NCBI GenBank assembly: GCA_043825275.1
Contig: JBDRSA010000025.1
Location: forward strand, 1-42,583
Source of the DNA: Candidatus Omnitrophota bacterium
GTDB taxonomy: Bacteria > Omnitrophota > Gorgyraeia > 2-01-FULL-45-10 > JBDRSA01
DNA: 42,583 nucleotides
Direction: 5' to 3'
Each line of letters opens with the position of its first letter. Position 1 is the first letter of the stretch. The position numbers and the translations under genes are program-made. Below the pieces are notes generated by a model. The model searched no databases. It saw nothing but the letters and a program-made list of their open reading frames with translations, and had not been told where the DNA came from. Positions 7,801 to 28,967 of this stretch are shown piece after piece.

Positions 7801-10800
7801 TGTCGAGATCACCCGATCTCAGCGAACAGGGTTTCGGGGCCCTATTCGTTGAGATCGCCCTGGGCATTATGCCGAGGCTTACCGGCCAGCGGGTCGCTTG
7901 GGGTATATTTTCGGGTCGGCAAGAACTTCTTTTCGCCAACACCCCGGAAGAAATATTGTGGCGGGATCTTTATCGCGCGGCGAGATTCCAGGTGTTCGGC
8001 AACAGTTTACAGGACCCGGAGATTCTCTATGACTTTATGCGGCCGCAGTGGGAAGCGCTTGAGAAGAAGTCACAGGATCCGAACCTGCCGCTTGAATTGA
8101 GCCCGGGGTATCTCTATATCGGCAGAGAGCAAGGCCTGTTCGAAGCGGCCGCAGCCGGAGAGGTAGGTCCGGAACATAACGACAAGATCGAACTTGCGAG
8201 ACTCGGCCACATTTGGGCCAATCCATTCGGTCGGGGAATGCGTTCTGAAGATCCGGCGGTATATGTTCTTCCGGCCGAAAGGTTTAATGAGCTCGCTCGG
8301 CAAGAAAAAGCGAGCATAAAGATCGTCAAAGTCGATTTGGGTAAGAGCAAAAGACATCCGCATCCTTATCTGCGGATCGCGGGTAATTTAGCTATCGACG
8401 AGTTTGTCGAGATCTGGGTGTCGCAAGATACGTATGATCGTTGCCGGGAGATGATGCGATCCGGCGGAGCGAACGAGCGTCTTGCGCGGCTTATGGATGC
8501 GGGGACGATCAAGGCAATCCCCGGCTTCCGCCACGAAAGTCTCGGGACCGGTGATGACACGAGGCTCGCCGGGAGAGTTGCCATTGGCAGCTACATGGAA
8601 GAACGCGGGCTCTTTTATAATATTCCGCTCTTCAGAGAAGCGGCGTCAATGCGGCATTCACCCACCGCGGACACGCTCGAAACGATAGAGCGCACGACAA
8701 AAGTTCTTATAGGCGGACAGCCCGAAGATATGCGGGGACTTACCGTTGCTGTGCCGGATAATCTCAAAGAAAGGATCATCGCGGCTGCCGGGAGTCTCAA
8801 GCATTTTGATCCTCTCTATTTTTCTCATGTGTTGCATCATGAGCCCGGTCTTACCGGGATCTCTACGCCGATCGATCATCTCTTTGTTAGGGCGGCAGCG
8901 GCATATTCATTGAGCGCGGTGATCCTTACCTCGCCGGATCCTCCGGCGCTCTACCGGCATTTTTACGCTGTTGTCGAAAGCGTCATGGGTACGGTACGAA
9001 ACGGCGGAGAGTGGATCGGGCGGCTGCAGACAGCAGATGCTCACGATGTCCTGCTGCGCCCACCGTTCGAAAGCCTCGGAGAGTTTAAGCGGACCGTCGA
9101 TCATGACGATATCGAGCTCGGCATCCAACATTACCCGCATCCGTCTACGTGGGAGACTCGTCAGACCTACGGCCGCGATTCATTCGTAACGGGCATGGGG
9201 ATCGAAGAGCTCAAGAATGGCGCCGAGAGTGTTTTCAACAGAAGGATATTTTTATCGATCTATGAAGACCGGGAAAAGGAGACGGTATGGGATTTTGAAG
9301 ATGAGGAGCATGCCAGATTCATCGAGCTCTTGGAGAGGATCGGCATTATCGGCGGCAACGGGATCGTGGCGGTCGTCAAAGGCGACAATAACGAAGGGCC
9401 GGCGCATCTCCTTCCGCTTCTGTGGTACTGGGGACATACGCACGGCAGGCTCCCCTTTGGCGAAGGGAATATATTTAATCCGACCGAACAGGATAAAAGG
9501 ATGGTTCAGGAGATCGGCGCTTTCTACCGGGCGCTTCCCTGGCACCATGCCGCCAGGAGATCCGGCTACTCTCTGACCGATGATCCTGTACGAAGATCAC
9601 CGTCGGCCGAGCGCGGCAAGGCTATCTGGAAAGCGATGAAGGGCAATGAAACGCGGGCAGGCGATAGTGCTGTTGAACCGTTCGTCGTCGATTGGGAGGC
9701 GCGCCCTGGAAGAGTGGTCCGCCGCCCTTCGACAGGCTCAGGGCGAGGCTCGCCGAGCGGGAGCGATGAGAAACCGACTGCCGGGGAACCCGGCAAAAAT
9801 AGAACCGTGCCCATTTCTGATATTTGTGATGGCAGCGGGACTATTGAAGAACTCCAAAATCTCGCGGAAGGTCTTCTCGCGGAGCCAAAAAATCTCGGCA
9901 CTGTCATAGAAGAATTAACAGAAACATACATTTCGCGTGACCCCATGAGCAGGGCAAAGATGAGGGCATTTTTATATGTTTTGGCGGAAACATACGGTAC
10001 CTTTAGGCAAAAGAAGAGCGTTCGGATTCCAAGCGATTATATCAAAACCTTAATACCTTTGGCTGAAGATCTCCTGAAAAAGGATATAGAAAGCGATCGT
10101 CGCGTAGTTGTGGCAGCGAACGAGGATATGACCGCGCTTCGGAAATTATATAAAGAGCTCAAACCCCGAAATCGGTTAAATTACTATTCAATAATGAAAT
10201 CCGCCATTGAGAACGGTTTCGACCTCAGCATACAGAGAGTGATAGGCGATAGAGCCATTGTTGACAAAGAGATTATCGACGATGGTAAGGGCGGCTATAA
10301 CGAAAAAGAAAAGTGGATAGCAATGAATGAGGATATAAGGGTACCCGAAAGCCAGGCAAGAGATTTTGTCGACAAGTTGAAACGCTTCGCCGAAGATACA
10401 TCAAATAAGTTATTCCATAGATTTAGAGCTTACATGATACTTTACGCCGTATTTTTAGAGGAGACAGAAGTTGACGAAAAGACCGGCGAGACCAGACTCG
10501 TCAGGCATGTTGAAACAGCGTTAGCCCCTGACAATGATAGAGCGCGCGCATACTTCGAGAAAGCCCTTGGGCCGGAAGGCGTTCAGGCAAAGGCGATACA
10601 AGAGCTTCTTAATGAAACCCTAAGGAGTGAGCTGAGAAATATATTGTCTGAAAGAATCCGGCGCCGGATAGAGGAAAGAGGCCTTGCCCTGACCATCGAT
10701 GAGTATATAGACAGAATGCTTTCTCCGAAGACCCTGAATGACTATGTGCAAAGCGTGCCGGAATCTTTGCGGAATAAGCGGATAACCGTAAAAAGCGGGG

Positions 10801-12896
10801 TGCGCGGAATGTTGTATTCAGCAGTCGGGAACGACCATGTCAATCTGGCCCTCCAGATGGGGGCGCGTCTCACCAATGTTAGCATGAAGGTGAGAAATAA
10901 GTACACGGCGGGAAAATATGAATTGCCCGTAGGAACATCTGTCCAGGTAATAGACAGCCCTGTTGTAAGACTCCATTCTTTAACCGCGGGATACAAGGGC
11001 ACGGTGGAGATAACTTCTCTATCTGATATATACGATTATTCCGAAGACAGAAGATTTACGCTCCACAAAACCTGTCTTGTCACCTCAGGAATAATACCGG
11101 AATCATTGAAAGGGGATCCTGCCATTACCTTGCGGGATATATTAGAGCGCTTCACCGGCGCCGGCGGCAGGGGTATAGAGATATCTATAGATGTAAAAGG
11201 AGTGCCGCCGCAATCCGGCCTTGGCGCGTCGAGTTCAATAGCGACAAATACCTTAGCGGCCCTCGCTAAGTTTTCCGGTCAATCAAGAAGTGATGATACG
11301 GACTTACCCTTCGATGAGATTATGCTGCTTGTCGCGAGAACCCTCTATGAAGAACAGATCAACGAGGCATTGGGAGGATGGCAGGATGCCTGCAGCATGC
11401 TCCCGGGAATAAAATTGCTCTCTACCGAGCCCGGGCAATTCTTGCCATCTTACAAGAGACTTACTGGAAGGGCGCAAAAAAAGATAGAGAAATTAGTAAA
11501 ATATGTTAGAGGCGGATTGGAGAGAGCCGCTGTATCAGGTTCTGCCTGGCAGTTCACAGGGTTATACGCCTTACGGTTAGAGCCTATAGTGAAAGGGAGA
11601 ATTAGGGCAAGACAAATAGTAAACGAGCAGATGGCGCTTATAGAAAAGGGCAAGATAGCCGATTTAGATACGCGTGAGGAGGAGAACAATAGAATATGGG
11701 CTATCGTAGCGCCTGCGGCATATAACGAATACTTTAGGATGCTTAAAGAGCGGCTTATCCGGAGGTTAGGAAAAGGCTCTTTCGTTTTCGGCGCCTGCGG
11801 CTCGACCTATGGAGCGGGTAACAAGGTAATCATAGGTAATCCAAAGGCAACAGTCCCAAAAGGTCAGCCAAATGAAGGCAGGAATATTCTGGATGTATTT
11901 GATGAGACCTTCGTAGAGGTAGCAAAAAGCGTCCAAAGCCGGATGAAAAGAGACACAAGATTTTCTCAGTACAAATTTTCTGATATACCGCCATTTGTTT
12001 ATGATTACACGATAGCTGATAAGGCATTTGAAATGGAAATAAAAGACCCGGTATCCGCGAAACAATCCTCCAGCCGAAGCTCGCCAAGCGGGGACATCAG
12101 TCGCCAGTCACCAGTCACCAGTCACCCGGGGGGAAAGGATAGACTACAGGAAATCGACCGTACACCGTTAACCGTAGACCGTAAACCGAAAGAATCCATC
12201 GATCCCGGACTTGTTGCCGATGATATCGCGAGAACAACGAGGGACCTTGAGGTCCATCAAATGCTCAATCCGGACGATGCGAAGGATCTCAGTACCTTCA
12301 CGGTGATCGCAGTAAAAGGGCTGACCGATAAAGCGGGAGAAGGGAAGGAAGCCGATCTCAATTATATCCTGTGGCGCGAGTACAAGGAAATGGCGCAGGA
12401 TGTCGAAAGGCTGATCGAAAAAGATATCGTAGAAATTGTTCCCGGAAAAACCACGCAAGAGTCCGCGAAGAGGCTTTCGGACGCGATCGAGGATATTAAA
12501 AAGAGCGATCCGAATACCAGGGTCATTATTCTCGATGACGGCAGTTTGACCGGCGAATTGTCGGAGGGCGATATTACTGCCGGTACGGAGGGCAAAGACT
12601 TCTGCGTAATATCGACAAAACTTGGAAAACACCCTAAGAATACCATAGATTTTGTAAATTTGGAAATGATGACGATCATGGGCGTCGGCGTCCTGAGCGG
12701 GGATATGGAGATATTCGATCTCGCGTACCGGGTCTTTAACGGTGAAGCGGCGCCGGCTGAGCTTCTGCGGCGGATCAAAGAGAGGAAGGATGAGCTCTGG
12801 TGGATCGTCAATGTAATTCCGCGCGCGGTGCGGTTCGATAAGAACTATCACCGGAACCAGGTCGAGCTCGCGAAGCTCTTTGCGGTCGCCGCGTAA
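1833..12896 (+). CDS. Giant mosaic protein G1 (3,687 aa): leader, membrane HExxH block, several enzyme-like modules, shared C-terminal module
   Basis: An uninterrupted 11,064-nt ORF, which cannot arise by chance at this GC content. SD-like GAAGGA lies upstream. It has a hydrophobic N-terminal leader and is paralogous to G2 at both ends. See the sub-features. Confidence 0.9.
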   Translation: MGQGQIQKRNSIFMKAVSWILVFTFLFSNSLFAEVLTERTHTLVPFYATSDKKDIEEVSDGVRWSPAAGETLRDRSQRLREDFNTAIAAVAARKLEKSLGTQDDSDPVGKDEALDDLRYKLDLARRIDGNSPVRVAALNNISSRLAHNINTGAPLQDSSSGDLLRGAIDKAIEDSKNASRDTAAPLFKTSKPGNQQTYQPIFRRSPSGEGIADSAKGKADSVQRQSPTSAASGMPARAKTGYVTVNLSSSADPKEKGYWGNMSLIQRLRAIPNALLHEGLHAAADLFRGEIDLKKGRYIHKAPNASLHDIFITLAAPVGGILIPAFALWKSAKDIMAAGYPAGSLLYFSVLVFTTYIVGNYAKNFIIAGHKGIVSGRQNIYALRPGAAFAIGGFYAVTTAVVSGVAIYKLLHEWPALLIGMMLVLTTFEIDFIVSGFYNLFSHTITADGPRARNKLRIRRYAKEAREIYLNVDRSFVDMIEARGETFHGRAGDILNSIYTAEDDETIYGMFAERFTGAEEMEQVKRFVVFARAWETNPNARRLNELLGRFTAIELLYKILNEENGEILEQKITGSRNPHMGEDQKPYYDLACGFIPLFCFQKLLRDREYVFVDNNPFEVAHLDEMKRLLRIPDNVKIRESEISGMDDVAPESLGTLRLGSLGGEVDIDSLPYERFAGWMAPGGQIIVEYFAAETRGLSKNIEIVDRLRSVIGEGRQNEWSYTRGYYDADDEFHEFVAGPITDELAFSTVHIFTRSPEAGPPAVLPDGPRHTAPDTPRRSPSADTHDESRQAPSVVHQRIFEEELVWLIQHDTPGSNKKIERTEEIRQQRIRRYRPVFDFLMDTARLSIQDLRRYRELFRSDPDIKWDFLTGNPSEVIEVDGVRYPKLGIQPKKIRQELVLLILSIPDNLYPTWDYLTGDPPETIEIDGIRYPKLGMAPERIRGAPRILLANVRSSLYPTWAFLVNQARMNRGRISQRVLMYSLDGKRRTPCSGTRMRVAYFTIHGIRYRERPSILTASRLELRNEYHIDINDLEKFWRDIWMPREDMLHDIQNAVASGIPGDQVDTKALSDAFRTLRVLSDDHLYYTGQRDPLSAHITSTIAPYLEHIQDSQHREQARTFLGNLQELPTHVQPETAVGDPRRSPSADKSDPRVYGERGAESVAHIVSYRPQEVASPEVMFISGAYTCTGIAVFDPKTGRYIGFHEFNFRSRDVSRIVEELNRRSVDISTARFLFFGNSPGKNEITTLKEKSLKKDGSLNEEMFREARQAYLREIARSRAAILRCLAEKGVTEDRVTMLMTDLDDPNAEGMNHEAVVDAATGMILVYRNETEPNTRFGEKDSIKHPPEVVTLDESVSFDAAARDAGIADLERIINLYLAKISVLNKNHDDDGHETPRGPSTGSGRESPSGGRKNLDEVYLTDARSRIDRYLEVAKSACADQEEGEWLLPEYVVSNEAYPTVMPHLERALQEGKIKQGGIYAGVGFEQNLSFIGALKPARAVIIERNHSITKVILPVFLEYISRFSSREALIDELMREWNGRVRRDLWTIARESLPEELRHRAWQMWGADSDCAAYIQRLIDPATFLLWQMPGCWLSNDSSFETVKTMWLEGKLSAVSGNWEGETPKKVAELVGEPADYMYLSNIFRFNAKNNPDLFPKIASDLSNNLRVLARTGDPVILEVGNSGRNDILERPLSSNFRVRTPDGVEHDISQAWHDSRRSERPVIVRRLSVSFYDFFADVEKDEAAKARTPAYGANGEPFYFSEFIAMHSLLGSIGNICIYAPERSSLEDDPVSLDILYDLRSAFDSKRSIVPLSVTGMMKSHIARHLRKAQRSALPEHRGVYEMFIERMEREGIIARVPEAAPDYRDSLDSRRASPTADDEASRKPSAGKPELLPAMFGIFAGNYRSVMSDEELENADLFTRMRLVNEMLRDIGAEYVITPRARLGFHLLTSLADNPILKGFRANLETAITDIRPEQTKEDVSRKLASSMSRSPDLSEQGFGALFVEIALGIMPRLTGQRVAWGIFSGRQELLFANTPEEILWRDLYRAARFQVFGNSLQDPEILYDFMRPQWEALEKKSQDPNLPLELSPGYLYIGREQGLFEAAAAGEVGPEHNDKIELARLGHIWANPFGRGMRSEDPAVYVLPAERFNELARQEKASIKIVKVDLGKSKRHPHPYLRIAGNLAIDEFVEIWVSQDTYDRCREMMRSGGANERLARLMDAGTIKAIPGFRHESLGTGDDTRLAGRVAIGSYMEERGLFYNIPLFREAASMRHSPTADTLETIERTTKVLIGGQPEDMRGLTVAVPDNLKERIIAAAGSLKHFDPLYFSHVLHHEPGLTGISTPIDHLFVRAAAAYSLSAVILTSPDPPALYRHFYAVVESVMGTVRNGGEWIGRLQTADAHDVLLRPPFESLGEFKRTVDHDDIELGIQHYPHPSTWETRQTYGRDSFVTGMGIEELKNGAESVFNRRIFLSIYEDREKETVWDFEDEEHARFIELLERIGIIGGNGIVAVVKGDNNEGPAHLLPLLWYWGHTHGRLPFGEGNIFNPTEQDKRMVQEIGAFYRALPWHHAARRSGYSLTDDPVRRSPSAERGKAIWKAMKGNETRAGDSAVEPFVVDWEARPGRVVRRPSTGSGRGSPSGSDEKPTAGEPGKNRTVPISDICDGSGTIEELQNLAEGLLAEPKNLGTVIEELTETYISRDPMSRAKMRAFLYVLAETYGTFRQKKSVRIPSDYIKTLIPLAEDLLKKDIESDRRVVVAANEDMTALRKLYKELKPRNRLNYYSIMKSAIENGFDLSIQRVIGDRAIVDKEIIDDGKGGYNEKEKWIAMNEDIRVPESQARDFVDKLKRFAEDTSNKLFHRFRAYMILYAVFLEETEVDEKTGETRLVRHVETALAPDNDRARAYFEKALGPEGVQAKAIQELLNETLRSELRNILSERIRRRIEERGLALTIDEYIDRMLSPKTLNDYVQSVPESLRNKRITVKSGVRGMLYSAVGNDHVNLALQMGARLTNVSMKVRNKYTAGKYELPVGTSVQVIDSPVVRLHSLTAGYKGTVEITSLSDIYDYSEDRRFTLHKTCLVTSGIIPESLKGDPAITLRDILERFTGAGGRGIEISIDVKGVPPQSGLGASSSIATNTLAALAKFSGQSRSDDTDLPFDEIMLLVARTLYEEQINEALGGWQDACSMLPGIKLLSTEPGQFLPSYKRLTGRAQKKIEKLVKYVRGGLERAAVSGSAWQFTGLYALRLEPIVKGRIRARQIVNEQMALIEKGKIADLDTREEENNRIWAIVAPAAYNEYFRMLKERLIRRLGKGSFVFGACGSTYGAGNKVIIGNPKATVPKGQPNEGRNILDVFDETFVEVAKSVQSRMKRDTRFSQYKFSDIPPFVYDYTIADKAFEMEIKDPVSAKQSSSRSSPSGDISRQSPVTSHPGGKDRLQEIDRTPLTVDRKPKESIDPGLVADDIARTTRDLEVHQMLNPDDAKDLSTFTVIAVKGLTDKAGEGKEADLNYILWREYKEMAQDVERLIEKDIVEIVPGKTTQESAKRLSDAIEDIKKSDPNTRVIILDDGSLTGELSEGDITAGTEGKDFCVISTKLGKHPKNTIDFVNLEMMTIMGVGVLSGDMEIFDLAYRVFNGEAAPAELLRRIKERKDELWWIVNVIPRAVRFDKNYHRNQVELAKLFAVAA
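1872..1973 (+). other. G1 N-terminal leader / signal-anchor shared with G2
   Basis: MKAVSWILVFTFLFSNSLFAEVLTERTHTLVPFY aligns with G2 IVSMILIPAFLLSNSVFAEVLIERASVATAVPYY. This is a hydrophobic helix followed by the conserved FAEVL[TI]ER. Confidence 0.7.
2394..2525 (+). repeat. G1 linker cluster 1: octamer array, RRSPSGE, heptamer-like array, RQSPTSA
   Basis: aaaccagc aaaccagg aaaccagc aaacctat has an 8-nt period. RRSPSGE is at 2439-2459. gcggatagcgcaaagggcaaagcggatag follows. RQSPTSA is at 2502-2522. Confidence 0.75.
2640..3170 (+). other. G1 membrane block with an HExxH motif (possible M50/S2P-like intramembrane metalloprotease)
   Basis: HEGLH is encoded at 2661-2675 (ALLHEGLHAAADLF). At least 4 hydrophobic helices follow (ITLAAPVGGILIPAFALW, LLYFSVLVFTTYIVG, AAFAIGGFYAVTTAVVSGVAIY, ALLIGMMLVLTTFEIDFIVSGF). 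Confidence 0.35.
3560..3910 (+). other. G1 class I SAM-methyltransferase-like module
   Basis: YYDLACGF resembles motif I (DxGCG). YVFVDNNP resembles motif II. WMAPGGQIIVEYF resembles the LkPGG motif. Spacing is Rossmann-like. Confidence 0.45.
4161..4181 (+). repeat. G1 linker motif RRSPSAD
   Basis: cgc aga tca ccg agc gcg gat, in frame. Confidence 0.8.
4428..4709 (+). repeat. Tandem 141-nt (47-aa) duplication inside G1
   Basis: Unit 1 spans 4428-4568 (WDFLTGNPSEVIEVDGVRYPKLGIQPKKIRQ...LYPT). Unit 2 spans 4569-4709 (WDYLTGDPPETIEIDGIRYPKLGMAPERIRG...LYPT). A third, decayed start WAFLVNQ follows. Confidence 0.85.
5253..5273 (+). repeat. G1 linker motif RRSPSAD
   Basis: cgc cga tct ccg agc gcc gac, in frame. 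Confidence 0.8.
6021..6062 (+). repeat. G1 linker motif GPSTGSGRESPSGG
   Basis: ccttcgacaggctcaggacgagagtcaccgagcgggg. A near-identical 40-nt copy lies at 9726-9764. Confidence 0.8.
7449..7469 (+). repeat. G1 linker motif RASPTAD
   Basis: cgc gcc tcg ccg acg gcg gac, in frame. Confidence 0.75.
8652..8672 (+). repeat. G1 linker motif RHSPTAD
   Basis: cgg cat tca ccc acc gcg gac, in frame. Confidence 0.75.
9591..9611 (+). repeat. G1 linker motif RRSPSAE
   Basis: cga aga tca ccg tcg gcc gag, in frame. Confidence 0.8.
9720..9770 (+). repeat. G1 linker motif RRPSTGSGRGSPSGSDE
   Basis: Second copy of the PSTGSGR-x-SPSG element (compare 6021-6062). Confidence 0.8.
10780..12050 (+). other. G1 GHMP-family sugar-kinase-like module
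   Basis: VPPQSGLGASSSIA (11205-11237) matches GHMP motif II (PxGSGLGSSAA). GGWQDA (11373-11390) matches the GGWQDQ motif of the fucokinase/HddA branch. GACGSTYGAGNKVI is a possible motif III. Confidence 0.6.
12072..12191 (+). repeat. G1 terminal linker cluster: SRSSPSGD plus two heptamer arrays
   Basis: SRSSPSGD is at 12072-12095. cagtcgc cagtcac cagtcac cagtcac is at 12098-12125. gaccgta caccgtt aaccgta gaccgta aaccgaa is at 12157-12191. Confidence 0.8.
12243..12893 (+). other. G1 C-terminal module shared with G2 (unknown function)
   Basis: Alignable along its whole length with G2 24943-25572. Shared blocks: RVIILDDGSLTGELSEGDITAGTEGKDFCVIS vs RVIVLDDGTLTGNLSETDIAKGTKGKHYCVIS; FVNLEMMTIMGVGVL vs FVNLNGMTLMGVGIL. 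Both end in VEL.KLF..AA-stop. Confidence 0.8.
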
Positions 12897-12900
12897 ATAG

Positions 12901-12930
12901 CTGTCAGGTTCCAGTTGTCAGTTGCCAGTA
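12901..12930. repeat. 30-nt heptamer cassette between G1 and G2
   Basis: ctgtcag gttccag ttgtcag ttgccag ta, starting 5 nt after the G1 stop (12894-12896). Confidence 0.7.
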
Positions 12931-12960
12931 AAAGAAAAGAAGAAAAAAGGAAAAAGGAAA

Positions 12961-15900
12961 ATGATGAATAAGGAACAGACGGTAATAAACAGAACGATGA
13001 GAAGAATACAAAGGATCGTGTCGATGATACTGATCCCCGCATTCCTTTTGTCCAATTCCGTCTTCGCGGAGGTGCTTATAGAACGGGCCTCTGTCGCTAC
13101 CGCTGTTCCGTATTATATCTCGGCGCTTTTAGATGAACACAAGGACGATCTTAAGGATCTGGCGAGAGGCGTTACCCCGGTCATGGACCGGAACTTTGTG
13201 GATAGAAAAGAGGATTTCGAAAAGGCGTGGGACCTGATGTGCGCCGAACGCCTGGCGCTGAAGATCGTATCGAAGATCAAACAGGACGAAGACAGGGGCT
13301 CGATGGCCGACGCCGAGCGCTGGCTCATACGGCAGATAGAGGATCGGGCGGATGAATACGGCATGTCCGCCGAGCGGAAAGCGTTTCTCGTTGAGGCGAT
13401 CACGCGGGAGTTCCGCGGTGAAGGCGCCGATGAGGATGTGATCGACGCGAAGGAAATCTTTGAGACGAGACAGGTGGAAGATGGGGGGCAGGCCTCGAAG
13501 GGCATAGAGCATAGCGCAGATGCTAGTCACCAGGCACTAGGTATCAGTCGCCAGGAAGCAGATGACAGAGAACAGAAGACAGAGGACAGAGGACGGGATT
13601 ATCGCGAGTCGCCTACAGGCGGGAAAAGTCGCCAGACGCCAGTTGCCAGTTTCCAGGAAAAGCAAAAGATAAATAGAGAACGTCGAACGACGCACGAGAG
13701 CGAAGCGTCCGCCTCGGCGAACCGAAGGCGAGACGGGGAGCGAAGCCTCCCCGGAGGGGACGCACAACGAGACGGCCGTAAACCGTACACCGTAAACCGT
13801 ACACCGGAAGCACGCCATTCCCCCTCCGAAGACTCCGATGATCCCGCCGCGGAAGAACCGGATGAAGAGATGGGTGATTTCCTTGATAGTCTTGAAGTAC
13901 CTTTGCCGCAAGACCAAGATTTCCCCATCCGGATACTGTCGTCGAGTTTTATTAAAGAATGTGAATTGATCAGGGAATTCGGCTTAAAGGAAGAGACCGG
14001 CGCGTATATTGCGCTTTATAGATATAACGGTGAACCGATCGGCGACTTGAAAACCGGTGGAGAGTTCATTTTAAAAGCTTCGATCAGGCCCATGGCCGGA
14101 ATGAACGCGCTGATAGGGCCGACCGCGGGATTTCATTCAAAAATCGGGCCGTCTGAGAACGTACCGGATCTTTACGGCGTCATCGATTTCGGGATCGAAG
14201 GCCGCACTGTCAGCGGGCACAAACTCTATGAGACCGCTATCCTGAAAGAGTTTGTCGAAGGGCCGTCATTGCGCGAGTATGTGATGGCGATGAAGACCGA
14301 AAGAAGTGATTCGGCAACTGAACAGCAGTTTCTCGATCTTGTCACGAGTGTTTTGAGGGATTACCGGGATACGTACAGGATCAACGGTTGGATGAACGGT
14401 GATCTCGACTCAAGGGATATTGTGGTGGCCCGGGCGAGATCAGGCAGCGGCTCGCGAAACGTCTTCATTGATAACGGTACCGCGACCGAATATGGATCCG
14501 ACGATCCTGCCGCAATAGCGAGGAAGCGGGTTGTTAAGGCGCTCTACTGTAGTTTTAAGCGATTTATGAGGCTCTCTGAAAGAGAGCCCGCCGAATGGTG
14601 TCTACCGCGGGATGACGGGTATTCGCTTACCATTGCGCTCCTTGATTGCCTTGGGCTGATCGCCGATACCCCGGTTGATTTCCAGGAGAGCGGCCAGCAC
14701 TATATCGATGTTGTGGAAAGCAGGGTTCTCAGCGATATCCATTCTCCGCAGCTGATAGACCGACTCAAGAGTGTTGCGGCAATGAGAGAGCATGTCTTTA
14801 CGAGGATCGTCCGCGCGCATGAGAATAACGGACGGCTCGAGGAGCTGGCGCATGTGTTAAACCATTACAGAAAACGGTTTGAAGACGAGGATGTTTTCAA
14901 CGCGCTTCTCAGGGATGTCGAGCGCATCGCCCGGGGCGAGCCGTCACTGGGTCCCGACCGGGGCTTAGAGGGTTTTGGTGGCGCGATTGAGCGAAAGTCG
15001 CCAAGCGCGGATATTAGTTCAGAGTTCATAGTTCATAGTTCACAGATAACAGATAGCAAAGAGCAAGAATTAGAAGATGACCAGGCAGACGACCGTACAC
15101 CGAAAACCGAACACCGTGAACCGAAAGAACCCCGCCGCAGCTCCCCCAGCGGGGATGATAAAACAGAAGGGCCCGAACGGGAAGACTCTATCGACGCGAT
15201 ACGGGACGCCGATACGCTCTCAAATTATGTCGACGGCCTGATAGCGGATATTAACGATACACAAAAAGACGCTCAAATATCGTTCTCCGATATACTCGCC
15301 TCTCCCGAAGGATACAACGAAAGCTTTTTTGAGCCGCTATACGAAATTCTATTCAGAAAACTCTCGCGCGACTTTTCCGGCTCCGAGGAGTTTGTCGAAT
15401 ACTGCGGAAGGGCGATCGGGCAAAAAGGCGCTGATATATTGCGCGTTGAAATGAACGGAGAGAATTTACCGCTTATCGGGCGTATCGGCGGAATACGGCG
15501 GAATAATAACACAAAGAAGGCATCTATAGAATTGTACGGCTTTTTATTCTTCCTGCTGGCTCGCGAGCCAAAGAAGTATCTTGCCCGGGTATACGACGAG
15601 TTCATGAAGACCCGCCCCGCTGAAGATATAGCCCTCGGCAGAAGGGGTATCTCGTATCACGATAGAGGCGACAGCGTTGTCCATTTTTACACAAAAGGCG
15701 TCATCTTTGAAGGTATCGTAAAACCTGTTTATAAGAAATCGCTTATGCCGATCTATGAGCATGAAAAGACTGTTCTTGAGGACAGGACGGGTTCGGATAG
15801 CGCGAAGAAGATCGGGAGGGCGTTACAGTATTGGCAGACACAAGGGTATATGCCGGGAAATGAGCGCCTTCTCGAGAGGGTAAAGAATTTCTGGAAATCC

Positions 15901-18900
15901 ACGACCGTTGTGGAGCTCGACATGAGGACGCCACTTCTTTTTTCAGACCCCGATCATAATGTTGTCAGGAGCTTCCACGCGGGGAGAACAAGGCGTGTTT
16001 TGTTCTTTTCGAAGGCCTATCTCGACAGCTTAAGTATAGACAGCGAAGCCGACATGAAGGAACTCGCTTTCTGGCTGAGCTTTGGTCAGCGGTTTATCGA
16101 CATGAAAGATGAAATGGAGGCGAAGGGTTTCGATTCGAGACAGATAGAACAGGCGCGTTCGGCCCTGAGCCTGCTCTATTTCGAAGACGTATTTATTAAG
16201 TGCCAGGAAGACGCCAGTCTCATCGATCCGCTCTACATTAAAGACAGATGCAGACGTTATATGCGGCAGGACACGTTTATTAAGTATACGACCCTATTGC
16301 GGGAGACAATAGAAAAAGAGAAAGAGGCGGATGCGCTTCTAAGGCAGGCGGATAAGACGAAGGCGCAGGAACATTACGCGCTCGCATGGTTTCTATACGG
16401 CAAACTCCTTTATAAGTATGATGGGATGGGTCTGCACTCGGAAGCCGAAAAGGCATATCAGAATATGACATCGGCGACAAGGGAATGCCAGCTCCATAAC
16501 TGGGGCCTTCTTCCATACAGGGTCTACATGTTCGATACATTTACCGCGCTGCGTTTCGGAAAGTGGCCGGAATTTGTTGAAGGGCTCGAGACATTCTTGA
16601 CAGGAAAGGGGTATAAGAGGCGCATGTGGAGAGAGGAAGCCAATTTGTTGAGAAACTGTCTGTGCGGCCATGAAGGTATTTACAGGGATTTTCGGGAGGT
16701 CATCGAGCGCGTTATACATAGCCAGATGGACGCGGCGGATACGGAAGTCCTATCCGAGATAACTCCGCACGCCGAAAGGGCATTCGATCTTTTGAAGAGG
16801 TTCTACGAGGATGGAGGGCCGGAGCGCTGTCTGGAGATCGACACACTGCCGACTTTACCCGAAGGAAATAACACCGAACCAAAACCGGACGGCTCTTCAG
16901 ATAAAAAGCGCCGCTCGCCGAGCGGGGAGGAAGATAGCCGACAGTCCACAGTCCGTAGTCCGAAGATAGAAAAACAGGATCCTCGTGAGTCGCCTACAGG
17001 CGGGGATGATAGGTCAGGGTTCATAGTTCATAGTTCAAAGTTGCCGACAGAAAAACAGGATCTTCGTGACTCGCCAACAGGCGGGAAAAGTCGCCAGACG
17101 CCAGTTGCCAGTTTCCAGAAAAAGCAAAAGATAAATAGAGAACAACGAACGACGAACGAGAGCGAAGCGAAGCGAAGCCTCCCCGGAGGGGACGCACAAC
17201 GAGACGACCGTACACCGGAACGCCGCTCCCCCAGCGCTGACCGGCATGACTCCGCAGATGCGGTCGAGGCGGCCTCGGCGGCCCCGGACTATCGAGAGTG
17301 GCTTGACCGGAAGGTGCCTTCCGAGTGGCGCGACAGACTCACTCCGAAACAGCGGGAGTTTCTTACCGTTTATTACCAAACCGATAAGGTCCTCGAAACA
17401 AAAAAGATGTCGCTCTTTACGAAAGCGCTCCTTTCCCTGGGAGTCGCCGGCGCGCTCGGATTCCCGGTCTTCGTCGTCCCTTCAGCGAGTAGCGCGCTGA
17501 CCGTCGCGGGTCTCATCTTCTTCATGTTCGTATTTATCCCGACCCACGAAGCCGGTCATTACCTCGCGGCCCGCGCGGTAAACCGGGCGTCTTTGAGAAA
17601 AACCGGCCGCCCCGTATTCAGCTCGATACGCTACGCATGGGAGGGAACGTTCCCGCAGGTGCGGATCGAATTCGCCGATGAGTTCCGCCAACCGAAGGGA
17701 TTTATCGATGTCATCGAATGGGGGCCGACCGTGTCGCTCATCACGTCGGCTGCCGCCTTCGCGATAACCGGCCTTTCGATATTCTTCGGGTGGGATATCG
17801 TCAGCTACTTCTCCTCCCCCACGGCGTATCTAACATTCGCGATGTTCCTTTTTGAGAGCTTCTGGCGTTTCGGATACAGCAACGACGGATCGCTGAGCGC
17901 CCGCACGAATAAGATCTCGCGCGCCTTTAAAAAAGCGAAGCGCTCATACTCGTTCCTCGGTGAAGATCCCATCCACTGGGGTATTGAGGCGGAGGACTTC
18001 CTTATTGATGCCGGAGACGGGATCTACTGGGCGGTCCCCGAAGAGTCATGGAACGAGACGGACCTTCTGGCCGATCGGGTCAGGGTGCGGGCGCGCGAGA
18101 GCCTTCTCAGGAACAGGGACGTACTCTTCGGCATGGGGCAGCGGCGCCCGGACGGCGCGGCCATTCCCGACGAACCGCCGGAGAATGTCTCGCACATCCC
18201 CTTCCTCTCTGACACGGTACGGATGGATTCGATACGGTATCCGATGCCGTTCGAATTGTCGGGAGAACTGGTAAAGCCCGATCAGGGGGACCGTGAAGGA
18301 AAAAGCTCCTTCATCGTCCGCTCTGTTTTTAACCCTTCGGGGAGAAGGTACGCGCTCTACAAGGTAACGGATTTTCCGAAGGAGCTCCTGCATCGGTCCA
18401 AAGGCCCTGAGCCATCCGCAGGCGAAAGCGCGCGGCGATCGCCGAGCGGGGAGGAAATTAGTCCGGAGTCCGGAGCCCGGAGTCGGGAGAAAAAAGAAGA
18501 TGGATATCGGGCAAACGACGAGATACTAGATACTAGATACAAGATACAAAATCCCCGTACCTCCCCCAGCGCGGCCATTCCTCCCGACGCTGATCCGGCA
18601 TTCTTTGAAAGCAGCTCGCCGCCGTACTGGATGATGGGGAATGATCTGATAGCGAAAGAAACGAAGCGCTTAGCCGCCAAGCTTCTGGATCAGGCATCAG
18701 CCGAACGTGCGGGGCGCCCATGGAGTTATGAGGAGATCCAGAAGCTCCTTCAGACGCATCCGGAGATTACCACCAAGCTTCAGTTCGAGAAAGCAGAGTA
18801 TTACCATATTCCTGAGATTGCCGCGTACGCGAACCTTGCGCTTGATGAAGAGTCGCGTGCTTTTTACGATGAGGCCGAGCGCATCTTCAAAAAGATTGTT

Positions 18901-21900
18901 CATGCGCGGTCAGAAGAAGAGATCCTCTCCCTGGCGCGACACCTCAAGGAGATAAATCCGCGGATCGCGGTCGTTATTTTGAAATGGCTGGCAAGCACCA
19001 CTGAAATGCATGGGTCAAAGTATGCCGCTGAAGAGCGTGCCGCCCGGCGGTTCCTACGGCGGTTCGTCAATCTCTTCTTCGGTGAGTTGGGCGGCAGAGA
19101 AGCTATCAATGATTATCTGGTGATGGCTGCCAATATGGTCCAGAAAGCGCGTCGAGAGCGGGATCTTATGCCGGATGAAGTGGCGGTCGTTCCGGTATTG
19201 ACCGGTGGAGGTACGCTGAGGGATTTTGCCAACACAAGACTCTTCTTCTCCGTACACCGCGTGCGGCCGCTTTTGTTTACCAGGGTAATGGCACAGGCAT
19301 ACGGCGTTGAGGAAGTTGATGGACGCCGACGATTTACCAGGGAGGGTGCCGAAGCCGTTTGTGAATACCTGAAACTACAGGAGATCATCGATGACAGAAT
19401 TCGGCATATCGTCTTTTTGGATGTCGGCCAGCGAGGTACGATCAGAGAGCTCCTGACGCCGATCCTCGACAAATTGTCGATCACGTCCGACCTTCCGGTG
19501 CTCTATCACGGCAAATACGCCGAAGCAGATCGGCACCTGGCGCACGGCCTGAACGATGAGCCGGCATGGCGGCCGCGCGATGAAGAGCTTTTGTGGATGG
19601 CCTATATCCTCGATGATGGATTCGAAAAGAGTATCGATGTTTCTAACTTCGTCTTAGAAGAAAAGCCACGCGGGCGCCTCCCGTTCTTTAAGCTTACAAA
19701 CAGTCTGTGGTTCTATCGATTGGTGCAGGAGAGAACGCAGATCGCCGCATCGGGATTGCCGGTATATTCAAGAAATCTGTACGATACCTGGGATTATTAT
19801 AGAGACGAGGATGAGAATGATCCCGCGTTCCGTCACTCGCCGAGCGGGGACGACGACGCAGAGCGCAAAGCGCAAAGCCTCCGGCCCTTACGGGCCTTAG
19901 GCCCGGAGGGCGCAGAGCAAAACCTTGAAGCGCGCGAAAGCGCTGTTTCCCCTAGTGCTGCGCCCGACATGGAAAAAATAAACAAAGCGGTAAAATTTGC
20001 GATCGATATCCTGAAGAGAGATGAAGAAAAGAGAGCGCTGCGCAATACCTGCAAGCAGCACGCCCCACTTCTGTGTTATCTCTTGAATCGTATGGGTATT
20101 GATGCGGAGGTCTCCCTGGTTTATTACGACAACTTTATGTTAAGAGAGGTCCACTACTGCGTGAAGATCCCGGGCCAAACACCGATCTATGTTGACTCGT
20201 TGCCTGAGGCGCATACGCACAGGATCTCACGCGATCCCGGCGTAGGCGTTATTCTCAAACCGGGAGATCCCGACTATGAGTTATATGTCGACGGCGAGAA
20301 ATTAGCGGGCCAGTATAGCGGTGGTCTTGCGAATCTGACACCAGGCGCCCGGATGCTGTTCGGCGTGAAAGAGGCGGAGAAAGAGATCGACGCGTTCATT
20401 GCGCGACTTACCGGAAGATCTTCCGGCTCCGCAGCGGGCGAGGACGAACAACCGGCAGACGACCGTACCCCGGAAACCATACACCGTAAACCGGAAGAAC
20501 CACGCCGTTCTTCGAGCGGGAGCGATGCCGCAAGGCCGGATCGTGATAAAGCGCTTCCGGATGTCCCGGATGACCTTCTCGACCGGCTGCCTGAACGCGA
20601 AGCGCTTATTCAGATAATCCGGATGGTGCTCGACGGAAGAGCCAGGGGGCCAAGAAAATTATACGGGGATCAGGATCGCAGATTTAATGTGTTGCGCCTC
20701 TGGACATTAGAGGGGGCCGCATATCAGGATATCATAGGACAAGTAGATTTTACGTACGCGGCAGCTCGGGAACATAAGAGGCGGGCGATCATTAGTCTCG
20801 CGGATTGGTTGGCTCCTTATGGCGTAACCCGTCAAGAGATCAAGGAAGTATTGAAAAGTATCCAAAAACCACAATTCTTAACAATGAAACTTGGTGATTA
20901 TCGCGCCTGGCATGTCCATTATAGCAATTGGGTCGTCGGCGAGGCGGAGGCGCCCGATCAGATACAATTCAATAAAAACGATAAAGAAGCCTGGGGACAG
21001 ATACTCGCTTTGCTCCGAGAACTCCATATAGTAGAGCCTACGTTCGACGAAGGGACGATCATCCCGCGCAAAGATGAGCACGGTTACATCATCGAGATCA
21101 GAGATCGGAATGGCGAGGCCCGGCATCAATATCTGACATGCTTTATTACGGGCAAGATGCTGAATCCGGTTTCATCCTTCGGTATTGTTATGCGGGGTTC
21201 AAGACAGAGCGAATTACGTCTTTTATTGGCAGGGTACGGCCCCGCCGATCTTCTCCCGGCGCTCGGCGATGTTAAAAAGTCTGTGTTACATTTAAAAGGA
21301 GGTGATTATCAGAGAGTTAGGCTGCTGAAAACCCCTCAAGGCAGGTCTATATATGTTACATTGTCAAAACGGTACACCTCTGATCACATAAAACCCGAGA
21401 TCTCAGGTGAAAGCCTTGCCGATTCCGCAAAAACCCGTATTACACTTTATGATCCTGATACTAACGAACCTGTATCGGACGTGATCGTGTGGACAGACAG
21501 GAAAAATTGGGAATGGGAAGATCAGAGATCAGACAAATATATTGATCCATCAGAAAATGGATATATACAGTGGTCCGCCGGGCAATGGAGAAGGTATCTT
21601 GCCGGAAGCAGGAGGACTCCTCCCAGACAGGATAAGATCGACACATATCCTACACCAATACAAAGGTCACACAGAGCAACGTCGAGAGTCGTTCGTATGT
21701 TAGAAAATGAAATAGATCTTGGGTATGAAGATGAATGTCCTTATGAACAGGTAAAGCGGTGCGCGTTGAAGATACCGGGCGATGATAGGCGTTTCATGGG
21801 ATTGTGGGCCCCCGAAGTCGATCCGGCGACAACTCCTCCGCTGGTTGTCCTCAGGCTCACAGGTAAAACATTGATCAATACCCTTACTATTCCCGCGGAA

Positions 21901-24900
21901 TACGAGATCGTTACACACGAGACTCCGGTGGAAACTGCTGAAAAAGAACCTGCCCAAGAGACCGTTTTAGAAGGTCCCGGAAAAGAGGTGCCTCCGCCAG
22001 TGGGAAGGATTCTCAAAGAGGAAGCTCCGGAAGAAGCTGCCGGTGAAGAAAAAAGCGCTCAAGAGGCCGACGCAGAGGCCCCTGGAACAGCCGGTGACGA
22101 TCTCATACATGTATCTATCGGAAACGCGATCAGATTCGACGAAGATGAGATCGAGCAAGCGCGTAACTTGACAAGAAGGGTATCTTCAAAAAAACGTTTG
22201 GCTGCTCGAAGTTTATCTGCTCAGGAACAGGATATAGTTGATATGGTCTTGCAGGGCGCAAGCGCGTCAGGGTTGACAGATCTTTATCTTGCGGCCTGGT
22301 CGGATCTACTAAAGAGCGCCATGATAAAGCTCGTGACGACAGACCTTCGCGAGCTGCCCCAGGCGTACGCGAAATACCGGAAGCTTTTTAGCGGATCAGC
22401 CGGTGCCGTGGGTAAGAAAAAACCGAAAAAGAAAACCGGCAGGAAAAAGCGCCATTCCCCGAGCGGGGAGGAAGACAGTTCGGAGTTCGGAGTCGGGAGT
22501 TCGGAGACAAAAGTGCGCCTGTCACCAGAGCACCAGAGCGCCAGCAACCAGAAAGCGAGTCGCGAATCACCCAGCGGGAAAAACAGTTCAAGGTTCAAGG
22601 TTCAAGGTTCAGAGAGCGCAGAGAGCATAGAAGAGAAAACCGGCGAACCGGTGATCCGTCGCCTGCATCGCGCTTCGGATCATTCCCTGATTCGTCGCCT
22701 TCAACACGTCTCGAATCACCCCCGGACTTTTCGTGGGGGGATCTTTCGTGGGGCTAACCGGCGAACCGGCGAACTGGCAAACCGGAAAGCCGGTCAACCG
22801 AAACGCCGCTCCCCCAGCGGGGAAAGACTGATCATCCCCGATGAGTATCGATCGGTGGGGAGTGAAAAATTCAGGGAGATATTCGGAAAAGAATTCGGCG
22901 GTCTCGCCCCCGACGCCGAACAGCTGGCGAGCCTGCTCGACCGCTTGAATCCGGCCGTTTTCGATATTCATCGCTCCGTTTGCGACAACAATGGGAGAGA
23001 GATATACCCGTATTGGTGTCATCCGATGTCCAGGGTAGTAGCGCAGGTTCTTAAAGATCGAGGATTCGATGTTGCTTCTGGCTCTTCAATCGTCGATGCG
23101 CAGGAGTTTGGATTTAATGTAGTGGTTGTCCACCATATAATAATACTTCAACTCTCGCAGGGGAACGTTCTCCTTGATTACACCGCCGACCAGTATTATA
23201 AAGACGCTGACGGCAACTGGCTCCACATCGAGCCGGTGATCATGCCTTGCGCCGAAGCCGAACGGGGAGCATTTTATGGAAGTGTGGAGAAAGGCGCAGC
23301 GATGAGATTAGATGAGAGAGACAGAAAGCTGTATGAAGCGATAAATGATGCTCTCAGCGGGAGCGAGGATAGAGCAAGAGGCGAAACTCCACGCGAGTCG
23401 CCGAGCGGGGAGAAAAGCGGTTCAGGGTTCAATGTTCAAAGTTCAAAGTTGCCGACTGCCGGGCACAAACCGTTAACCGAATACCGTAAACCGGTGCGTG
23501 AATCCCCCAGCGGGGAAGAGAATAGACTGTCTTCCAGAAGAAAGGGGACACGGAAAGAAGAACTGGCGCAGCGAAGAGTAAAACCTCTTTCAGATGTGGT
23601 TATCTCGAATATTGATAAGGGGCCTGTGGTTGCCGAAAGTGAGCTCAGAGAGTTGGTGGAGAGTACAGAAAAATTCGGCGGGGATTGGCGGAATCGAATT
23701 GTCACCGCCATGGCAGACCCGGAATCGGTAACATTGCTTGCGCGGCGTCACGGAAGAATCGTCGGGTTCATAACAGGGGTTGAGCCGGATGAGAGCGACC
23801 GGGAGCTTATCGGAAAACGTAACGCGCATTACTTGCTTGGTATTGGCGTGCGGCCTGAAGAGCAGGATCAAAGGATCGCGACGGCGCTCTTTGCGCGGTA
23901 TACTAAGACGCTCAAGAGGCTGGGGAAATACGATTCTGTAGCGCTTCACACAAGAGATGATCGGATTTTTCGAATAATTGCCCGCTATCAGGACAGAGTC
24001 ATCCGCACGCGCCGGAAACATACAGATCGTGGTATGCAGATCGTTCTCTCGCTTGGAAGCGACGGTCCGGAGAAAGCCAAGTTGCAAGAAAGAAAAGCCC
24101 CGCTTCGCCGCAGGTCGCCGAGCGCGGAGGGGGATAGTCCGGAGTTGGTAGTCCGTAGCCCTGATCGAGAGTTTCTTGTAGATAAGAGAATCTCGGCTGA
24201 GAAAGAGATCTATGAGAGGTTCAGAAGAGGTGATAACAGTTTTATCGCGTTTTTCGATTTTGATCACTCAAGGCACTATTTTACGACTTTCGGTGAGATG
24301 AAAATGAATAGAATCTTAACGGGCGGGTTTTTGCGTGCGCTTGAATTTCTGGAAGGAGAAGGAGTACTAGTATGGCCACCTCTTGGATTTGGCTGTGAGG
24401 AGATCGGGCTCTTATTCCCGGAATCTATGGAAAAAGAGGAAGTGCTTTCACTGCTCGTCTCTGCGAAGGAAGAGATCGAGAAAACCACCTTTCCACTTAA
24501 AGGGACCGCCGTGCTTCAAAAGATCCAGAAGACTGTACCCCTTTTGGGCAAAGCGAGAAGTGAATCGAATCAAAGAGTGCAGCAGGCGTGGCTTGAGAAA
24601 GAGATGAGAGACTATTTCTCGCAAATGAAGCGATGGAAGAATAAATACGGTCGGAGGACTATTGTCGATCTCGATTTAGAGCCCCCAGTAGTCTATAAAA
24701 AAATAAGCCGCAATTCCCCCAGCGCGGAAAACGGTCCAAGGTCCAACGTCCAAGGTCCAAGGCCGCCGGAAGATAGCGGAGCGCCGAAAACCGTAGACCG
24801 TAAACCGGAACGCGGATCGCCTACAGGCGATGACAACAAGATACTAGATACTAGATACCAGATACGAGATCCTCGCCGCTCATTAAACGCTGACATTGAC

Positions 24901-25577: not shown

Positions 25578-25619
25578 TTGTCACTGACAACTGTCAACTG
25601 ACAACCGGCAACTAACAAG
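25578..25619. repeat. Six-unit heptamer array directly after the G2 stop
   Basis: ttgtcac tgacaac tgtcaac tgacaac cggcaac taacaag, starting 3 nt after the stop at 25573-25575. Confidence 0.75.
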
Positions 25620-27080: not shown

Positions 27081-28940
<1,860 letters not shown>

Positions 28941-28967
28941 TTAACTGGTTTACTGGTTAGCTGGTCT
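28941..28967. repeat. Octamer array directly after the glmS stop
   Basis: ttaactgg tttactgg ttagctgg, starting at the first nt after the stop (28938-28940) and running into MITE-like copy E2. Confidence 0.65.

Follow-up and report, generated by a model that had tools for sequence, protein, structure and literature searches.

What separates the gene-sized modules of a bacterial open reading frame (ORF) that runs for more than four thousand codons, and how did such a frame come about? The question is raised by a 42,583-nucleotide (nt) stretch of Candidatus Omnitrophota DNA (contig JBDRSA010000025.1 of assembly GCA_043825275.1; "the window" below is this whole stretch), in which positions 1833-25575 are occupied by two giant ORFs on the same strand, G1 (3687 residues) and G2 (4217 residues), which are read in different frames. 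An earlier note on this DNA had drawn attention to positions 16909-17241 (linker L3), had noticed that short DNA modules recur among the linkers, and had proposed either that read-through fused adjacent genes into the giant ORFs or, alternatively, that these ORFs exchange modules at their linkers. G2 has about ten inter-module junctions, and L3 is one of them. The explanation that we favour, with a probability of roughly 60%, is a two-layer linker in which a selected peptide mark is combined with DNA filler, cargo being changed at the linkers and the giant ORFs not having originated by run-on.

The window is contig C25 of a metagenome-assembled genome (MAG, labelled G000) of 2.0 Mb in 153 contigs, with 52% GC and 90% completeness; G001 and G016 denote relative genomes and C followed by a number denotes a contig. 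The MAG contains 32 open frames of at least 1200 residues, the largest of more than 10,850. The hallmark of the protein family to which G1 and G2 belong is a leader together with a C-terminal alpha/beta domain of about 230 residues, encoded at 12192-12893 and 24880-25572 of the window and marked by the conserved elements VI[IV]LDDG, DYC, FVNL, PR and LF..AA-stop. This C-terminal domain is predicted to adopt an alpha/beta fold (AlphaFold2 (AF2) model, pLDDT 78) and gave no significant match to Pfam, to PDB sequences in a profile search or to PDB folds. It is carried by Omnitrophota proteins of 265 to more than 4000 residues, and the relatives in which the family occurs bear the title Candidatus Omnitrophota. 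When 5.8e9 proteins were searched with G2, the only matches were G2 itself, the in-genome paralogue on C125 and one distant hit.

Organization of linker L3 and recurrence of its DNA modules

Analysis of L3 revealed four copies of the pattern R-x-S-P-[ST]-[GA], starting at 16909, 16984, 17065 and 17221, together with four or five short-period arrays (Table 1). In order, L3 consists of RRSPSGEED, a 30-nt cassette, IEKQDP, RESPTGGDD, five AGTTCAT-type units (FIVHSSKLP) and EKQDL, followed by RDSPTGGK, a 30-nt cassette, a Lys/Gln-rich spacer, a GAACGAC array, an AGCGA array, LPGGD, an ACCGTAC remnant and RRSPSAD. All five DNA modules that the earlier note had listed as recurrent were found again: SPSGEEDS plus cassette (D2) at 16903, 18427, 22444 and 24103; FIVHSSK (D7) at 14985, 16980 and 23388; ILDTRY (D10) at 18515 and 24833; ADDRTP... 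(D3) at 15073 and 20443, with 82% identity; and PSTGSGR.SPSG (D12) at 6018 and 9720. Recurrence is far above chance, the E values of linker blastn searches against the 2-Mb genome going down to 1e-45 to 1e-47.

A junction motif conserved as a peptide

The motif R-x-S-P-[ST]-[GA] occurs 131 times in the genome, and 125 of these copies lie in ORFs of at least 1200 residues, against 0.35 expected from composition. The ORF on C7 has 20 copies, G2 18, the C125 ORF 15, the C21 ORF 14 and G1 nine, and all the copies in G2 and G1 sit at linkers. Placement is constant in the nine in-genome paralogues: the first motif is found 117-270 residues from the N-terminus, past the leader, and the C-terminal domain begins at most about 100 residues, usually 20-60, after a motif. 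When the motif was sought as a DNA pattern, 122 of the 151 hits were in sense frame 0, 20 in frame 1, three antisense and six in spacers. The frame-1 hits are chance strings of the I-A-E-R type in ordinary genes, and the antisense and spacer hits look mostly like chance as well; two of the spacer hits, on C65, are part of another intergenic repeat that flanks an ordinary operon. A generic mobile DNA element was considered and is ruled out by this near-confinement to sense frame 0.

All six arginine codons are used at the first position and the x codon varies freely, which indicates that it is the peptide that is conserved. Codon choice is strongly biased (CGC 63% vs 18% in the background, GGG 57% vs 22%, TCN 98% at the first serine, and AGC 90% of the serine codons at position 5 vs 25%), and gene-specific subfamilies exist in which the x codon is fixed, such as CCC CGC GCC TCG CCG A.. 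in C21 and C89. Since a founder codon signature is combined with gene-specific subfamilies, the simplest reading is that the motif spread by copying from founders, under selection at the level of the peptide.

The pattern CGNNNNTCNCCNAGCGGNGA gave 34 matches in this genome, none with the reversed control and none in 43 other genomes of the order. Related marks were nevertheless found in proteins of the same architecture elsewhere: those of family f2 carry five to seven copies of R-x-S-T-[ST]-G each, those of family f3 have strings like R-x-S-[SA]-[SA]-[GS] (R-P-S-S-S-G, R-A-S-S-S-S, R-E-S-S-A-G or R-E-S-A-S-G) immediately ahead of the C-terminal domain, and the GHMP block is followed by SRSSPSG in G1 and by TRASTTG in G001:C82. 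The motif is the lineage form of an older R-x-S-x-[ST]-G mark. Its positional conservation makes it a candidate set of cut sites and module boundaries, usable to split giant ORFs for structure prediction.

Heptamer arrays as DNA filler

The second component of the linkers is shared with the non-coding DNA of the genome. Tandem Repeats Finder (TRF) gave 553 period-7 rows among 1489, which were merged to 538 arrays with a median of 4.1 copies and a modal length of 29-32 nt. Their density per kb is 1.38 in non-coding DNA, 0.26 in giant ORFs and 0.065 in other ORFs, and they are built from 135 canonical heptamer units, of which AAACCGT, ACTAGAT, AACTATG and AACTGGC are the commonest. Among the 351 measured non-coding arrays, 115 begin within 30 nt after a stop codon, and 50 of the 78 giant-ORF arrays share their unit with non-coding arrays. 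The observation in the earlier note that the linkers look like post-stop spacers was thus borne out, heptamer arrays following the stops of G1, G2, glmS and pyrB. Three ACCGTAA units in a row (up to 3 mismatches) were matched 217 times here vs 0-20 times in other genomes of the order, and the giant-ORF regions of ten relatives had zero to two period-7 arrays per 12-20 kb fetched.

Within the ORFs the arrays keep company with the motif: 31 of the 131 motifs have an array starting within eight residues downstream, most often at +2, and 24 have an array ending within eight residues upstream. Because three heptamers make 21 nt, an array in frame reads all three phases of its unit, and the recurrence of peptides such as FIVHSSK, TVNRKPE and ILDTRY is an automatic consequence of the DNA. 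Where a unit would create an in-frame stop, it is exactly this codon that is altered (TAG to AAG or CAG). A hairpin or palindrome reading of the linkers was rejected: in the three G2 linkers tested no inverted repeat reached 10 nt, and RNA of the region 16900-17245 did not fold more stably than shuffled sequences (z = +1.12).

The gene pyrK serves as a fusion-free control and shows that arrays enter ORFs by insertion. Its six in-frame arrays have the units AGTCACC, ACCGTAA, TAGTTCA, AACTATG (the reverse of AGTTCAT), AGTCCAC and CGGACGA. Alignment with a solved PyrK (5ksw_B, 262 residues) placed five of the six at or beside gaps or in an unaligned stretch, and two of the arrays lie between the Fe-S cluster cysteines and the C-terminal CxDGPVF. 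Stop-avoiding substitutions were identified in the pyrK arrays too. As non-coding heptamer arrays that are translated in several frames and on both strands, the linkers are a clear case of repeat DNA supplying disordered linkers.

Copying of linker DNA within and between giant genes

Comparison of the 22 motif-bearing ORFs revealed 46 linker-linker matches with 70-96% nt identity over 39-336 nt, two or three of which (C133/C145, C66/C110) are contig-end overlaps or alleles and not linkers; the modules that flank the matched linkers are unrelated. Within G2, segment 17055-17217 of L3 and segment 13593-13785 of L1 align as two gap-free blocks of 91% nt identity, or 78% over 193 aligned columns when the 30-nt indel is included. 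The L3 region 17046-17194 is also 87% identical to C125:12193-12052 (- strand). In the C125 copy of this L1/L3 segment one heptamer is missing, and owing to the 7-nt deletion the downstream gagcgaagcgaagcctccccggagggga is read as ESEAKRSLPGGD in G2 and as RAKRSEASPEGT in C125. The longest exact runs are 42 nt for L1 and L3, 38 nt for L3 and C125, and 27 nt for L1 and C125. Linker L2 is 75-82% identical over 130-159 nt to linkers in the C110 and C56 ORFs and 73% identical over 131 nt to a linker in the C7 ORF. A piece of L6 (22651-22738, 88 nt) recurs reverse-complemented in the C7 giant ORF (positions 13785-13872 of its coding sequence) with 81% identity; it was found in these two places only, and both copies are translated, from opposite strands.

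These matches suggest that motif and filler travel together, as pieces of 40-190 nt which duplication or gene conversion transfers from linker to linker, and such copying would give the linkers of each gene their own flavour.

Linkers as probable sites of cargo exchange

We asked whether proteins that are related at their ends also share what lies between. Two pairs, G2 with the G001:C4 protein and the C80 protein with that of G001:C74, are nearest relatives of each other at both ends; C80 and G001:C74 pair in both domain trees (91/96 and 96/96). Residues 17-175 of C80 match residues 33-182 of C74, where the first motifs lie at 167 and 174, respectively, and the match resumes at 1192-1412 and 1389-1595, the last motifs lying at 1160 and 1368. 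For G2 and G001:C4 the N-terminal homology ends just short of the first motif of C4 and resumes after the last motif. In both pairs the 1000-3800 residues between the shared ends are unrelated. A homology block in module M2 (G2 753-1296), found in ten relatives, fills the interval between L2 and L3. Shuffling of the ends among paralogues was considered and rejected, as the leader and C-terminal domain trees showed no conflict; in the tested pairs cargo was replaced between ends that stayed together.

The sequence comparisons therefore support the view that gain, loss and replacement of cargo take place at the linkers, within a frame formed by the conserved leader and the conserved C-terminal domain. 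Orthologous leader/C-domain frames with wholly different cargo and breakpoints at motifs point to a route by which giant proteins diversify. As the motif is essentially confined to frame 0 and exact runs of 27-42 nt are shared, crossing-over between linkers would preserve the reading frame. The earlier proposal of linkers as exchange joints accordingly holds for the location of the breakpoints; that homology of the linker DNA drives the exchange, by recombination, is what we infer. Joints identified in the single public run that holds the window DNA, a groundwater metagenome (hereafter the holder run), had short sides (21-33 nt) and came from other repeat copies.

Origin of the giant ORFs

The remaining proposal of the earlier note was that the giant ORFs arose as a fused operon, by read-through into neighbouring stand-alone genes whose former intergenic heptamer spacers became the linkers. 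It has something in its favour: the arrays in the linkers use the units of post-stop spacers, the cargo consists of whole enzymes of types that are normally free-standing (GDH, class V FBPase, GHMP kinase, GNAT and SecA-like proteins, besides methyltransferases), and on C125 a stop codon within an array, with further arrays behind it, parts two ORFs of the family, as if linker and spacer could be interconverted. The comparison with other genomes, however, argues against it. A blastp search of G1 and G2 against all ORFs of this genome showed that only the leader, the C-terminal domain, the linkers and a single cargo paralogue are shared, the last being G2 359-670, which is 30% identical to C125 2098-2385 and flanked in both proteins by motifs. 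A close stand-alone homologue was found for none of the tested modules, either in this genome or in 40 relatives; in the relatives the tested modules were always in open frames of about 900-11,160 residues, except for one that was split across two contigs. Module G2 753-1296 is 34-42% identical in the relatives and module G1 2748-3402 is 58% identical in G001, one G016 ORF carries homologues of both a G1 and a G2 module, and the first half of G1 had no matches in the 40 relatives. The GDH block of C125 is 77% identical to a block inside an 8960-residue ORF of G001, while the ordinary GDH of about 450 residues in relatives reaches only 28-32%.

The module-bearing ORFs of the relatives have no SP motif and almost no heptamer arrays, and the multi-module state therefore predates the arrays. 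Leader and C-terminal domain enclose each complete member of the family, and in the nine in-genome paralogues neither occurs anywhere but at its own end, the N-terminus and the extreme C-terminus, respectively, with no internal relics of either, which indicates that growth was internal and not by run-on. Furthermore, G1 and G2 do not share a reading frame, spacers contain essentially no copies of the motif, and the arrays of pyrK entered their ORF by insertion. On C125 (1664-20211), the leader-bearing ORF of 5543 residues stops at a TAG in a CGCATAG array, 28 residues past RESPSGEYS, and the next ORF, of 661 residues and in a different frame, carries the family C-terminal domain. With leader and C-terminal domain on separate pieces, this is not a pre-fusion state; it is best read as one original gene that was broken at a linker, or else as a frameshift site or an assembly error. 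Since a change of one 7-nt unit shifts the frame, and since the C125 gene appears to be split by a TAG in an array, the repeats make giant genes fragile, a property of relevance to the annotation of MAGs. The data do not support recent run-on into adjacent genes as the source of the giant ORFs, and we consider the fused operon very unlikely. Fusion in a broad, ancient sense is real but older than the arrays.

Two observations on the cargo and its carriers are added here. The sole GDH (C125, residues 301-765) and the sole class V FBPase (C80, residues 816-1087) found in the MAG sit in leader-bearing multi-module proteins, and the separate GDH of about 450 residues that is present in most relatives is missing from the MAG assembly. 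The minimal member of the family, encoded by G001:C81 (467 residues), has hardly any cargo besides its leader, two R-G-S-T-T-G motifs and the C-terminal domain, and could be an empty carrier.

A proposed two-layer linker and its alternatives

In the explanation that we favour, the first layer would be a translated and selected mark that follows the leader, separates the cargo blocks and directly precedes the C-terminal domain. The mark is most likely a recognition site, and its placement makes proteolytic processing the leading candidate for its role. The second layer would consist of imperfect heptamer arrays of about 30 nt, drawn from the repertoire that fills the non-coding DNA; these may have colonised tolerant, disordered linkers as well as loops of housekeeping genes, and would change by 7-nt and 30-nt indels. 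The peptide sequence of the filler would be largely unconstrained, the same DNA being read in different frames and on either strand.

Several findings weigh against this explanation. The synonymous-codon bias of the motif is so strong that it may also mean a signal at the nucleotide level. Adjacency of arrays and motifs is partly due to both being limited to short linkers. The ACCGTAA and AGATACT units have opposite orientations in giant ORFs (14:0) and after stops (0:33); selection for hydrophilic peptides in the ORFs is our guess at the cause, stop avoidance having been rejected as the ORFs favour the stop-containing ACCGTAA orientation. Lastly, the only in-genome pair of cargo paralogues is just 30% identical, and no genome is closer to the MAG than those of other families.

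That the linkers are merely tolerant spacers, in which motif and arrays are neutral hitch-hikers homogenised by gene conversion and play no part in processing or exchange, would agree with filler DNA that is read in any frame or strand, with arrays that invade any tolerant loop (as in pyrK), with a similarity that is concerted and gene-specific, and with the lack of nucleic-acid structure. We regard it as doubtful, because three families agree in the core R, S and G residues of the motif and in its placement although the surrounding linker sequence cannot be aligned, because the enrichment of the motif, about 350-fold over expectation, is strictly frame-specific, and because the homology breakpoints of orthologues coincide with motifs. 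The same breakpoints would suit a motif that is primarily a nucleotide-level signal, either for mRNA processing or pausing or as a recombinase site for in-frame cassettes, with the peptide incidental. Its synonymous bias is far above the background of the same ORFs even though the x codon is free (consensus CGC NNN TCG CCG AGC GGG GA), and the TCG ... AGC codon pair is dominant in family f2 too (TCG ACG AGC GG). However, the motif copies include AGR arginine codons and each of the four TCN, CCN and ACN codons, the SPSG copies of f2 use other codons (TCC CCT TCG GGG), only the peptide pattern persists in f3, and the subfamilies with a conserved x point to copying and not to constraint; moreover, the tested linkers have neither inverted repeats nor an unusually stable RNA fold (z = +1.1), and no recombinase was identified. 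A nucleotide-level signal is thus unlikely.

Repeat-driven chimeric joins could in principle have made module order or linkers unreal in a MAG of 153 contigs, all the more since unitigs break exactly at the duplicated pieces of L1 and L3. Contigs of the holder run made by an independent assembler nevertheless tile G2 with zero differences and break only at these two pieces, although the holder run may be the source sample, so that the tiling is not independent data. Copy-specific unitigs (13627-13768 and 17089-17186) span both repeats with 0 differences, G2 is fully tiled at an even depth of about 10-11x, the frame of 4217 codons stays open through every linker, and other contigs and other genomes repeat the same architecture. 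An assembly artefact is hardly credible.

A bolder variant of the two-layer explanation, to which we give a low probability, is that R-x-S-[PT]-[ST]-[GA] punctuates a polyprotein system. A dedicated protease would free enzymes loaded on a leader/C-domain carrier, and the motif would double as a frame-preserving recombination site for cassette-like shuffling of cargo. If so, the giant genes would be stop-less, reshufflable operons loaded with GDH, FBPase, kinases and acetyl- and methyltransferases. The G2 cargo includes a GNAT module and the membrane module M3 (17254-18429), which has an HEAGH sequence and a sub-threshold match to Peptidase_M50 (E = 0.04; 13.6 bits vs a cut-off of 27.2) and is a weak candidate for a processing protease inside its own substrate. 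The C-terminal domain was considered for the same role and rejected, its AF2 model having no significant fold match and its profile no sequence match in the PDB.

Comparison with known systems

Giant multi-domain proteins of Omnitrophota have been described (West-Roberts et al. 2023, bioRxiv 10.1101/2023.11.21.568195; bioRxiv 10.64898/2026.06.07.730766). In the first preprint, cleavage of the giant proteins is left open, and missing information on cleavage points blocked analysis (bioRxiv 10.1101/2023.11.21.568195). Term searches of the full text of both preprints retrieved no mention of a linker, junction motif, fusion, disordered, polyprotein or tandem repeat/heptamer. The proteins described here resemble those giants in belonging to the same phylum, in reaching thousands of residues, and in their membrane leaders and SecA-like, methyltransferase and GNAT modules.

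Comparable heptanucleotide repeat arrays are the short tandemly repeated repetitive (STRR) sequences of cyanobacteria. Direct repeats of the heptanucleotide TAACTGA occur in Beggiatoaceae, Cyanobacteria and Bacteroidetes (PMC4679880). Both resemble the present arrays in having two to six tandem 7-nt units, in numbering hundreds per genome, in being mostly intergenic and in their sporadic phylogenetic distribution. TAACTGA, however, is one dominant unit located before start codons, while 135 canonical units were found here, arrays lie right after stop codons, and about one third of the arrays lie inside long open frames, where they are translated and concentrated at the motif-marked junctions of giant proteins.

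Rickettsia palindromic elements (RPE) are selfish repeats that occur in frame within genes as copies of a palindromic consensus of 100-150 bp. They share with the present arrays the presence of non-coding-type repeats in frame in protein genes, housekeeping genes included, at structurally tolerant sites; they differ in that the arrays are short and direct, show no hairpin potential in the tested linkers, have many unrelated units and evolve by unit indels. In MARTX-type proteins, effector modules located between conserved ends are swapped by recombination and released by autoprocessing. The likeness lies in the conserved N- and C-terminal parts around variable, gene-sized modules and in orthologous frames with different cargo. 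There is no relation in sequence or fold, however; the cargo here resembles metabolic enzymes and not toxins, and no cysteine-protease domain was identified, the C-terminal domain being without a significant fold match. Intragenic repeats, as in repeat-bearing bacterial surface proteins, evolve in concert by gene conversion or unequal crossing-over. Here too the linkers of one gene resemble each other more closely than do the modules on either side of them, and each gene has its own flavour; unlike the repeats of surface proteins, they are junction linkers between non-homologous modules and are common to different genes as well.

Other features of the window and of the genome

The coordinates of the linkers, their components and the other features of the window are given in Table 1. 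Downstream of G2 the window carries ordinary chromosomal genes, namely nagA-like, glmS, pyrB, pyrC, pyrK, pyrD and V-type ATPase genes. The RNA run of the study gave no coverage of G2, the matches being to arrays only and with mismatches.

Table 1. Positions of linkers, motif copies, arrays and ORFs in the window.
Feature	Position	Strand	Remarks
G1, giant modular ORF, 3687 aa	1833..12896	+	hydrophobic N-terminal leader, 9 R-x-S-P-[ST]-[GA] motifs, family C-terminal domain
G1 cargo	within 1833..12896	+	includes DUF7790 and GHMP-kinase block
PSTGSGR.SPSG copy 1 in G1	6018..6059	+	D12
PSTGSGR.SPSG copy 2 in G1	9720..9761	+	86% nt identity to copy 1
Post-stop heptamer array, G1-G2 spacer	12902..12929	+	tgtcagg ttccagt tgtcagt tgccagt
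G2, giant modular ORF, 4217 aa from TTG	12922..25575	+	4204 aa if from ATG at 12961
G2 parts	12922..25575	+	leader, 18 junction motifs, 21 period-7 arrays, about 9 cargo modules, family C-terminal domain
Linker L1, copy of L3 segment	13593..13785	+	30-nt insertion relative to L3
Linker L2	14985..15161	+	RKSPSAD, AGTTCAT array, ACCGWAC array, RRSSPSG
Linker L3	16909..17241	+	111 codons between cargo M2 and M3; 4 motifs, arrays, short spacers IEKQDP and EKQDL
Motif RRSPSG (CGC CGC TCG CCG AGC GGG)	16909..16926	+	L3
30-nt cassette agccgac agtccac agtccgt agtccga ag	16936..16965	+	L3; read as SRQSTVRSPK
Motif RESPTG, TCG CCT ACA GGC subfamily	16984..17001	+	L3
AGTTCAT-family array, 5 units	17011..17045	+	L3; translated RSGFIVHSSKLP; would-be in-frame TAG unit is AAG
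Copied linker segment	17055..17217	+	L3; paralogue of 13593-13785
Motif RDSPTG	17065..17082	+	L3
30-nt cassette agtcgcc agacgcc agttgcc agtttcc ag	17089..17118	+	L3; read as SRQTPVASFQ
GAACGAC heptamer array, then AGCGA pentamer array	17140..17178	+	L3; translated ..QRTTNESEAKRS
Motif RRSPSA, TCC CCC AGC GCT subfamily	17221..17238	+	L3
Linker L4	18427..18579	+	RRSPSGEEIS, AGTCCGG cassette, AGATACT array (ILDTRY), RTSPSA
ADDRTP.T.HR.P.EPRRSS copy, ACCGTAC-type array	20443..20507	+	motif decayed to RRSSSG
Linker L6	22444..22829	+	three motifs; AGTTCGG, GTTCAAG and octamer arrays
Linker L7	23388..23522	+	RESPSGEKS, GTTCAAA array (FNVQSSKLPT), AAACCGT array, RESPSGEEN
Linker L8	24103..24171	+	RRSPSAEGDS and AGTCCGG-type cassette
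Linker L9, final junction before C-terminal domain	24708..24897	+	RNSPSAE, GGTCCAA array, CCGTAAA array, RGSPTGDD, AGATACT array
Post-stop heptamer array, directly after G2 TAG	25579..25618	+	
pyrK, 321 aa	33423..34388	+	six in-frame heptamer arrays, both orientations

Further repeats were noticed in the spacers and beside the heptamer arrays. The pyrB-pyrC spacer (31745-31960) contains nested inverted arrays, in the order AGTCCAC-type, five TTACGGT units, about 100 nt, five ACCGTAA units and reversed AGTCNNN-type. Another repeat family is likewise intergenic, namely GTCATTGCGAR ... GAAGCAATCTC and its inverse, with a genome-wide total of 173 core copies; those in the window lie at approximately 1470-1560 and at 28975-29100, 30150-30200 and 33300-33400. 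Arrays with an octamer period, AAACCAGC, CACCAGAG, GGCGAACC and GTTAACTG, stand beside heptamer arrays both in ORFs and after stops, at 2395-2423, 12930-12961, 22523-22544, 22752-22785 and 28940-28965.

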